Shown: positions 3,600-4,218 of the stretch, piece by piece | Position numbering within the stretch: position 1 is the first letter of the stretch | Layout: every line of letters begins with the position of its first letter | Program-made: the position numbers and the translations under genes | Virus record (IMG/VR): IMGVR_UViG_3300032167_000002 | Span: 24,286 to 88,285 of that record | Length of the DNA: 64,000 bases | Direction: 5' to 3' (one strand) | Source of the DNA: a virus | Taxonomy: Duplodnaviria; Heunggongvirae; Uroviricota; Caudoviricetes | The notes under the pieces: model-generated | The model's input: the letters and a program-made list of their open reading frames with translations, nothing else | Databases searched by the model: none | What the model was told of the DNA's origin: nothing

Positions 3600-3868
3600 T
3601 ACCCCATAGAGAAATGACCCGCTCCGAAGTGTTTGAAGTAATCAAACAGGTTTACTTCGGTGCTTTCGCCGCAGTCTTCGCAATGAGCTTCGAAAGTCAG
3701 CTCCACATAAGGATACTCATCTTTCAGAGCAGTCAGAGCCTCGGCCGCAGCCTTCGCCAGCTCATTGAAACGCTTTTCCTTACGATGCATCTTTTCAAAG
3801 TGGATAGCCTTTTCCAGAGCCTCCAGCTCGTCCCAAGACATATCAATGAAATCTACATTCTTACACAT
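3599..3868 (-). CDS. Hypothetical protein
   Basis: Start set at the ATG behind the GAAAGGATTGATACT leader; CxxC near the C-terminus. Confidence 0.7.
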   Translation of the reverse strand: MCKNVDFIDMSWDELEALEKAIHFEKMHRKEKRFNELAKAAAEALTALKDEYPYVELTFEAHCEDCGESTEVNLFDYFKHFGAGHFSMG

Positions 3869-4033
3869 AGTATCAATCCTTTCAAATGTGATGCGGTTTT
3901 GGATATTATTCTGGCGAGACCGCAAACTCCCAGGGGGATAGGTTTTGTCATTTTGGATTACCTGCCCACAACCTCACTAGCCAGTTTTACGACTCCATCT
4001 GCTGTCGGTCAAGATACAAGACATATTACATAA

Positions 4034-4113
4034 CGTCGCTCTAACCAGTTGAGCTACTGGGCCATGTGGCGACCCAGGCAGGACTCGAACCTGCAACCCC
4101 CGGCGTGACAGGC
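4034..4113 (-). tRNA. tRNA-Asp(GTC)-like gene in circularly permuted order (3' part, CAT linker, 5' part)
   Basis: Minus strand reads GCCTGTCACGCCGGGGGTTGCAGGTTCGAGTCCTGCCTGGGTCGCCA (4113-4067), CAT, then GGCCCAGTAGCTCAACTGGTTAGAGCGACG (4063-4034). The two parts sum to a 77-nt cloverleaf. Confidence 0.75.
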
Positions 4114-4218
4114 AAATTGAAATTGCTGTTAATGTCTTTCTTTATCTTACATATATATTATATCATATTTTTTTATAAAAATCAAAGAGAACTCTTTTCG
4201 CCAGGTGGCTGGCTGTCC

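Follow-up and report, generated by a model that had tools for sequence, protein, structure and literature searches.

A back-to-front tRNA-Asp in a large phage genome is probably part of a Y-RNA-like tRNA mimic

Ro60 and its Y RNAs form a conserved RNA quality-control system whose roles in bacteria and viruses are poorly understood. One class of Y RNA, YrlA, is encoded beside TROVE-type Ro60 in 254 bacteria and 22 phages and carries the motif GNCGAAN0-1G (Chen et al., 2014; PMC4201824). YrlA contains a module resembling the D, T and acceptor arms of a tRNA and lies within 4 kb of the Ro60 orthologue, on the same strand (PMC4201824). The enzymes TruB and DusA modify Salmonella YrlA, and the YrlA of M. 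smegmatis, which has a 7-base-pair (bp) acceptor stem, is cut by RNase P at tRNA position +1 and receives CCA in vivo, giving a two-piece tRNA-like RNA bound by Rsr (PMC4201824; see also Wang et al., 2018, bioRxiv 10.1101/312249, for YrlA). In Thermus phage phiLo, Ro60 binds two Y-like RNAs with the CGAA motif (Yrl1 and Yrl2), which are encoded upstream of it (PMC12135203; PDB 9KOP, 9L5Y). Here we describe an RNA element enclosing a permuted tRNA-Asp module in a 64,000-nucleotide (nt) stretch of phage DNA (the window; positions 24,286-88,285 of IMG/VR record IMGVR_UViG_3300032167_000002, a record of 402,311 bp). Coordinates are positions in the window unless a record or locus is named; G000:C1 denotes the 402-kb record. 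The locus is probably a Y-RNA-like tRNA mimic for a Ro60-like protein (a DUF2828 system), and a reading as a tRNA gene that still needs splicing is most likely wrong.

Permuted tRNA genes of Cyanidioschyzon merolae, other algae and Thermofilum give working tRNAs by way of a bulge-helix-bulge, a splicing endonuclease and a ligase (review PMC4090602). As in those genes, a single transcript of the phage module carries the 3' half upstream of the 5' half, and a short linker separates the CCA-proximal sequence from residue 1; the differences are that the phage genome is without such an endonuclease and that a conserved stem, here called the handle, is formed by the RNA termini. In the two-piece permuted transfer-messenger RNA (tmRNA) of alpha-proteobacteria and cyanobacteria, a permuted tRNA-like gene produces two base-paired pieces. 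That molecule differs from the phage RNA in having no such D-arm or anticodon arm and in having a tag reading frame.

The permuted module and the RNA that encloses it

On the minus strand, positions 4113-4067 (47 nt), the trinucleotide CAT and positions 4063-4034 (30 nt) rejoin into the cloverleaf of a 77-nt tRNA-Asp(GTC). This order and the exact fit of the halves had been proposed in an earlier reading of the DNA (the original prediction), and both were reproduced from the minus strand and with ARAGORN, which calls the sequence joined in silico as a 77-nt tRNA-Asp(gtc). The features of the locus are as follows.

4157-4185, minus strand: sigma-70-type promoter, TTGATT-17-TATAAT with an upstream TG
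4014-4141, minus strand: the whole RNA (handle and tRNA mimic), with limits given by the family covariance model (not mapped ends)
4132-4138, minus strand: 5' arm of the handle, AAGACAT, pairing with 4024-4018
4123-4129, minus strand: ACAGCAA, signature motif of the family, after a 2-nt gap (TA) from the handle 5' arm
4114-4122, minus strand: 9-nt 5' linker, TTTCAATTT, from the motif to residue 30
4067-4113, minus strand: 3' part of tRNA-Asp, residues 30-76 (from reading of the sequence and ARAGORN on the joined sequence), in the order G30 C31, loop CTGTCAC, GCCGG, 5-nt variable loop GGGTT, T-arm, acceptor strand, G73, CCA
4111-4105, minus strand: anticodon-like loop CTGTCAC
4094-4078, minus strand: T-arm, GCAGG-TTCGAGT-CCTGC
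4077-4071, minus strand: 3' strand of the acceptor stem, CTGGGTC
4070 and 4069-4067, minus strand: G73 and CCA
4064-4066, minus strand: CAT linker, which closes the acceptor hairpin and puts U at position -1 before G+1
4034-4063, minus strand: 5' part of tRNA-Asp, residues 1-29 (from reading of the sequence and ARAGORN on the joined sequence), in the order GGCCCAG, TA, D-arm GCTC-AACTGGTTA-GAGC, G26, A27 C28 G29
4063-4057, minus strand: 5' strand of the acceptor stem, GGCCCAG
4054-4039, minus strand: D-arm, intact
4036-4034, minus strand: A27 C28 G29
4025-4033, minus strand: 9-nt 3' linker, TTATGTAAT, following residue 29
4014-4024, minus strand: 3' arm of the handle, ATGTCTT (4024-4018), and the family-typical tail GTAT
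3918-4010, minus strand: possible second handle element, weak, consisting of GACCG, ACAGCAG, 76 nt of non-tRNA cargo and CGGTC

The acceptor stem of the joined tRNA has all seven pairs, one of them G.U, and the T-stem has five of five. The anticodon stem rebuilt from ACG and GC, a further element of the original prediction, has four of five pairs in this copy (one A.G mismatch), and pairing in the split stem exceeds that in permutations across the family (see below). The 3' and 5' halves abut exactly, and the residues for tRNA tertiary pairs are complete (U8, A14, A15 with U48, G18 G19, T54 T55 C56, and G53-C61). In E. coli the identity elements of tRNA-Asp are G73, G10, G34-U35-C36 and C38, all of which are present in the joined tRNA. 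In the order in which the RNA is encoded, the entry point of the chain is between residues 29 and 30, within the 5' strand of the anticodon stem. From there the chain passes through the anticodon loop, the T-arm and the 3' acceptor strand, the acceptor stem is capped by a 7-nt loop (GCCACAU), and the chain returns via the 5' acceptor strand and the D-arm. The assembly of run X1, from another sample, covers 3771-4115 in the same order. This argues against misassembly, a concern raised with the original prediction, at the level of contigs. The back-to-front tRNA-Asp is real and far beyond chance. ARAGORN identified neither a tRNA nor a tmRNA in the unjoined window, nor flanking tRNA halves; Rfam at gathering thresholds gave zero matches in the window, and Pfam gave no informative match for the nine neighbouring open reading frames.

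The original prediction described the anatomy of the module correctly and missed the larger unit, in which a handle stem and ACAGCAA enclose the module to form a molecule of the Y-RNA/YrlA type. In the folded transcript the leader pairs with the trailer. The definition used for handle elements was a stem of 6 bp or more whose 5' arm is followed within 0-3 nt by ACAGCAA, and this copy has a stem of 7 bp and a gap of 2 nt. Because ACAGCAA was the search anchor, its invariance in the alignments is by construction. The promoter that had been noted just upstream of the module is present (TTGATT-17-TATAAT with the TG extension), and transcription would start near 4150. A promoter block of about 50 nt recurs more than 80 times in the record. 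The block (4136-4186 in the window) includes the first ~14 transcribed bases (GTAAGATAAAGAAAG) and resembles one dominant phage promoter class. No terminator was found downstream of the RNA.

A permissive Rfam scan gives YrlA (RF02553) as the best match (4122-4011; 41.9 bits, E 6.5e-08). YrlA and the phage RNA are alike in having a terminal stem in which the two ends pair, a module that runs from the T-arm through a closed acceptor-like stem-loop to the D-arm, retained tertiary-pair residues, occurrence in phages and bacteria, and a location on the same strand as a gene for a Ro60-fold protein. They differ in the partner, which is TROVE Ro60 for YrlA and, as a candidate, DUF2828 for the phage family. 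The YrlA model runs the anticodon-stem position into the terminal stem, whereas the phage RNA keeps a full anticodon stem-loop, with the break inside the stem; the phage RNA is also multi-copy in tRNA arrays, and this copy encodes CCA. The YrlA of M. smegmatis also has a 7-bp acceptor stem closed by a loop, but its CCA is added after cleavage, whereas here GCCA is encoded and followed by a 3-nt spacer, and cleavage is putative. The phiLo system is similar in its phage Ro60-fold protein and in the small RNAs just upstream on the same strand. It differs in that the protein is recognisable as a Ro60 homologue by database search and the RNAs have CGAA; the term 'tRNA-like' is absent from the text of PMC12135203. 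The statement in the original prediction that no such genes are known in phages overlooks the YrlA tRNA mimics reported in 22 phages (PMC4201824, 2014).

A co-varying family in this record and in other phages

We identified the RNA independently with a covariance model (R2) built from other phages only, without any sequence of this genome. Positions 4141-4014 are its best match in the record (94.9 bits, E 2.9e-16), at full length (model positions 1-129) and with all modelled pairs canonical. The record holds eight copies of the permuted RNA, and the seven besides this one score 51-92 bits with R2. Paralogues outside the training set reach 66-92 bits with R2 and 56-95 bits with a second model, R1. 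Four copies rejoin into tRNAs recognised by ARAGORN (Asp, Gly, Pro and His). A census of handle elements gave about 22 in the record, all on the minus strand, and about half of these carry T-loop cargo; some handles enclose non-tRNA cargo. All are within tRNA arrays except this copy, which lies 10 kb beyond array A. The weak second candidate at 3918-4010 has a 5-bp stem only and is undetected by R2. In total, ARAGORN predicts 81 tRNAs in the record, in two parallel minus-strand arrays.

In a DNA search, this RNA was precisely the part matched in Enterococcus phages vB_OCPT_CCS1 and Bop; in vB_OCPT_CCS1, which is a cultured phage, two units built in the same way stand in tandem (89-93 bits with R1). 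In the unannotated region of CCS1 that holds them (ON113170, L001:3760-4260), an element of about 50 nt with two hairpins (GGTTTT, hairpin, ATAGTTCC...GGAAC) precedes each handle RNA, and there is a third unit with non-tRNA cargo. A pattern scan of viral contigs returned at least 118 stretches. The same permuted order with covarying stems, which the original prediction had suggested looking for in other phages, was found in at least 74 distinct RNAs from other viral contigs. A pattern for Asp-type copies gave two matches only, both in coding DNA and attributable to chance. The RNA at 4141-4014 almost certainly belongs to a large, co-varying family of phage RNAs. The family is apparently undescribed, and literature searches on permuted tRNA in bacteriophage, DUF2828, and Ro/TROVE RNA repair returned no description of it.

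In a set of 109 distinct pattern matches to which no filter for pairing was applied, the acceptor stem has 7/7 pairs in 74 and 6/7 in 17, and when the 5' strand was slid by 1-3 nt as a control, seven pairs were formed in at most one of the 109. RNAalifold, applied to 59 sequences, recovered the handle, T-stem, closed acceptor stem and D-stem, with double-sided changes at 17 of 23 pairs; these rows were pre-filtered for pairing, so their weight lies in the diversity of pair types rather than in the share of positions paired. Covariation across phages extends to all seven pairs of the handle. The split anticodon stem is complete (5/5 pairs) in 49 of 60 members, whereas 500 permutations gave 17.9 on average and 24 at most. 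Residues 41-43 are all paired with the strand that follows the D-arm in 36 of 60 (permuted mean 7.3, maximum 16), with 3-5 pair types at each of these pairs. Many members have canonical-looking 7-nt anticodon loops, with U33 in 49/69 and a purine at position 37 in 65/69. The break point differs between members, and the 3' strand supplies from 0 to 5 pairs of the stem.

Encoded CCA is a feature of part of the family. The present copy keeps G73-CCA in register, and its spacer ends in U before G+1. GCCA is kept in six of the eight copies in the record, and among members from other phages NCCA is in register in 12 of 74, compared with about 1.1 expected by chance, and is never one base off. Ten of the 12 NCCA members have U at -1. 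Most family members have an acceptor capped by a loop of 2-9 nt without CCA. Two copies in the record (L144 and L141; G000:C1:2908-3098 and 221655-221838, minus strand) have an insert of 55-60 nt between the CCA and the 5' acceptor strand. The insert consists of two hairpins, the second of which has a compensatory change from A-U to C-G between the copies, and no Rfam family matches it. Strains also vary: that of run X1 has a change of G2 to A, which turns a G.U pair into A-U, and a changed linker with the CCA unchanged, and in another strain the interior of the handle is replaced by 19 nt.

The module is 74-77 % identical to the canonical tRNA-Asp genes of the phage, which makes it an old paralogue. 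The identities for mimic and canonical tRNA (0.77 vs 0.75) are too close to decide the origin. The permuted order may have arisen from a tandem pair of handle-bearing tRNAs whose outer halves were lost.

The record itself consists of two parallel, diverged units of about 200 kb, each with an array of about 40 tRNAs, and the DNA of the window is only about 67-72 % identical to the second unit. Close relatives are contigs of about 200 kb, and the RNA is also present in other IMG/VR records, of 401-413 kb. Either the 402-kb record represents a true double genome, or two related phages have been joined in it. It includes four tRNAs with a CTA anticodon, labelled Pyl by ARAGORN (G000:C1:2265-2436 and 206027-206176), and a gene of a close relative gives its database protein only if TAG is read as Q, which suggests TAG reassignment in this phage group.

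A DUF2828 protein as candidate partner

We identified DUF2828 genes, with scores above the Pfam cut-off, directly downstream of each tRNA array and on the same strand. Among records carrying the RNA, 38 of 49 have DUF2828, including 13 of 14 with a completeness of 90 % or more. The loci that were fetched contain 39 RNA-gene pairs, in all of which the RNA and DUF2828 share a strand, and the median distance between them is 632 nt. In Enterococcus phages vB_OCPT_CCS1 and Bop, two such RNAs immediately precede the DUF2828 gene.

A structure model was made with AlphaFold for a full-length, 98 %-identical DUF2828 homologue, using 84 diverse sequences (predicted local distance difference test, pLDDT, 91.3; predicted template-modelling score, pTM, 0.91). 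The best 13 PDB matches are all Ro60/TROVE proteins, with template-modelling (TM) scores of 0.5-0.58 over 543-595 aligned columns, i.e., over the full length. They include Xenopus and human Ro60, Deinococcus Rsr and the Ro60 of Thermus phage phiLo. The predicted fold of DUF2828 matches that of Ro60, a helical-repeat ring plus a von Willebrand factor A (vWA) domain. A phmmer search of the PDB with the DUF2828 protein returned no Ro60. On balance, we favour a partnership of the RNA with the DUF2828 protein, and the two together apparently constitute a second, undescribed branch of Ro60/Y RNA systems.

The two DUF2828 genes of the record are on the minus strand (G000:C1:198791-199741 and 400847-402295). 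The short copy encodes 316 amino acids (aa) and is without profile positions ~123-269. The other is cut by the end of the record (482 aa, versus 516-519 aa in homologues). A gene for a GmrSD-plus-HNH nuclease is directly upstream of the short copy.

Possible roles and competing explanations

The product of the locus would be a small non-coding RNA, ~130-140 nt long and built like a Y RNA, the ends of which pair as the 7-bp handle, followed on the 5' side by single-stranded ACAGCAA. The handle and ACAGCAA may dock on the phage Ro60-like protein, as the stems of Y RNAs do on Ro60, and the tRNA-shaped head may be offered to proteins that recognise tRNAs. It could serve as a tether by which tRNA-recognising enzymes are recruited to the ring protein, or it could divert host nucleases that target tRNAs, as a decoy. 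Our confidence in any specific cellular role is low.

Host RNase P could cut between 4064 and 4063, giving a two-piece RNA that ends in CCA. The substrate preferences of RNase P are the basis for reading U(-1)/G(+1) as compatible with cleavage. Such opening is plausible given the encoded G73-CCA, U(-1)/G(+1) and the M. smegmatis precedent, and for this copy we regard it as possible but somewhat doubtful. It is rather unlikely that RNase P and trimming to the encoded CCA would yield a two-piece, handle-tethered tRNA-Asp, with its anticodon loop and Asp identity elements kept, that is aminoacylated or acts as bait for anticodon nucleases on the Ro60-like ring. No match to a CCA-adding enzyme was identified in the record.

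Several observations weigh against a Y-RNA-like mimic with a DUF2828 partner. TROVE (PF05731) has no match at E <= 1 in the 402-kb record, the YrlA score of 41.9 bits misses the gathering threshold of 69 bits, and the GNCGAA/CGAA motif of published Y RNAs is not in the leader (4150-4114), where ACAGCAA takes its place. This copy is about 28 kb from the nearest DUF2828 gene, on the same strand, compared with the usual distance of <1 kb. The frequencies and distances given for DUF2828 cover RNA-carrying phages only. Collection of the family needed three exact anchors (ACAGCAA, GGTTCGANTCC and TAGCTCA) and so samples part of it. The evidence from RNA libraries consists of contigs from four runs that may include DNA; the contigs give neither RNA ends nor strand, and their depth is dominated by the repeated promoter and generic T-arm sequence. 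Finally, in the nearest relative the promoter and handle arms are the same but enclose just ~20 nt, which implies that the tRNA module is dispensable at this site.

The RNA could instead be a two-piece, CCA-ended tRNA-Asp made by RNase P and 3' trimming, acting as a chargeable split tRNA or a decoy with no need of a Ro60-like protein. GCCA in six of eight copies in the record, the structured inserts of 55-60 nt in two of them (sensible if removed), U(-1) in 10 of the 12 NCCA members and the M. smegmatis YrlA precedent are consistent with it. However, it leaves unexplained the conservation of the handle and ACAGCAA and the linkage to DUF2828, and G73 also accompanies Gly-like and other loops, i.e., does not track amino-acid identity. 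We consider this decidedly unlikely.

A cis-acting element in the 5' untranslated region of the downstream mRNA, in which the handle acts as a signal for processing or stability and the tRNA module is simply carried along, is very unlikely. Orthologues of the locus were sought via a flanking gene of 243 aa. The slot is not syntenic, and only one relative, from an ENA metagenome (L129:3135-3230), keeps the promoter and handle arms; it has the promoter, leader and handle arms, no tRNA module, and a ribosome-binding site and start codon directly after. This empty handle before a start codon, handles with non-tRNA cargo and the lack of a terminator after the RNA fit a cis-acting role, and handle hairpins may also occur in mRNA leaders. 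Most handle RNAs, however, are within tRNA arrays and not before genes, and the tRNA-like cargo is conserved in structure across phages. In relatives, the homologue of the 243-aa gene is followed downstream, after a few genes, by Thg1-like genes (L132:3340-3720 and the P0347 locus). Thg1-like proteins carry out 3'-5' nucleotide addition and repair tRNA 5' ends.

It is highly improbable that the locus is a non-functional scar, either of decayed tandem tRNA-Asp genes or of an att-type duplication of a tRNA 3' end. Tandem tRNAs with spacers of 1-3 nt are common in the arrays of this phage, the permuted order might be derived from tandem handle-bearing tRNAs, and the closest relative is without the module. 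These ideas fail because of the covariation, the module's own strong promoter and the lack of any integrase match in the record; moreover, the halves abut exactly with the tertiary-pair residues intact, there are eight copies in the record and dozens of co-varying homologues, and no flanking tRNA halves were found.

Least probable of all, and extremely improbable, is the original proposal of a genuine permuted tRNA gene, in which ACG and GC would be joined (as a circle or contiguous chain) and the molecule opened at the CAT linker to serve translation as tRNA-Asp: the joined sequence is a good tRNA-Asp with identity elements and encoded CCA, but back-splicing into a circle is unsupported, given that RtcB and the splicing endonuclease (PF01974) have no match in the record, no back-joined contig is present among the four RNA-library runs (contigs drop rare forms), four canonical tRNA-Asp genes are already in the record, most members have a sealed, CCA-less acceptor that rules out charging, members differ in their break point, and splicing would discard the most conserved parts, the handle and ACAGCAA. 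Of the ligases sought elsewhere in the genome, one weak, sub-threshold Rnl2-like match was found at 186.4 kb in the record; the Rnl1 search was silent, but it was silent in control genomes too and is not proof of absence, and the same holds for a Vault search. A loose end at 4113, considered as a candidate junction, is an ordinary bacterial tRNA-Asp of another organism.

A Y-RNA-like tRNA mimic for a Ro60-like protein would belong to a branch that combines a Ro60-fold protein labelled DUF2828 with several RNAs per genome that share a common handle, many of which hold a rewired but complete tRNA whose anticodon loop can be recognised. Annotation pipelines thus overlook an entire class of genes derived from tRNAs. 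If the two-piece, handle-tethered tRNA-Asp were true, no split tRNA would have been described in a bacterial virus before it. The family occurs in the tRNA arrays of large gut phages and of cultured Enterococcus phages, and is therefore open to laboratory experiments. Host defences often cut tRNAs during infection, and the family may be relevant to the ways in which phages protect or police tRNAs at that stage.
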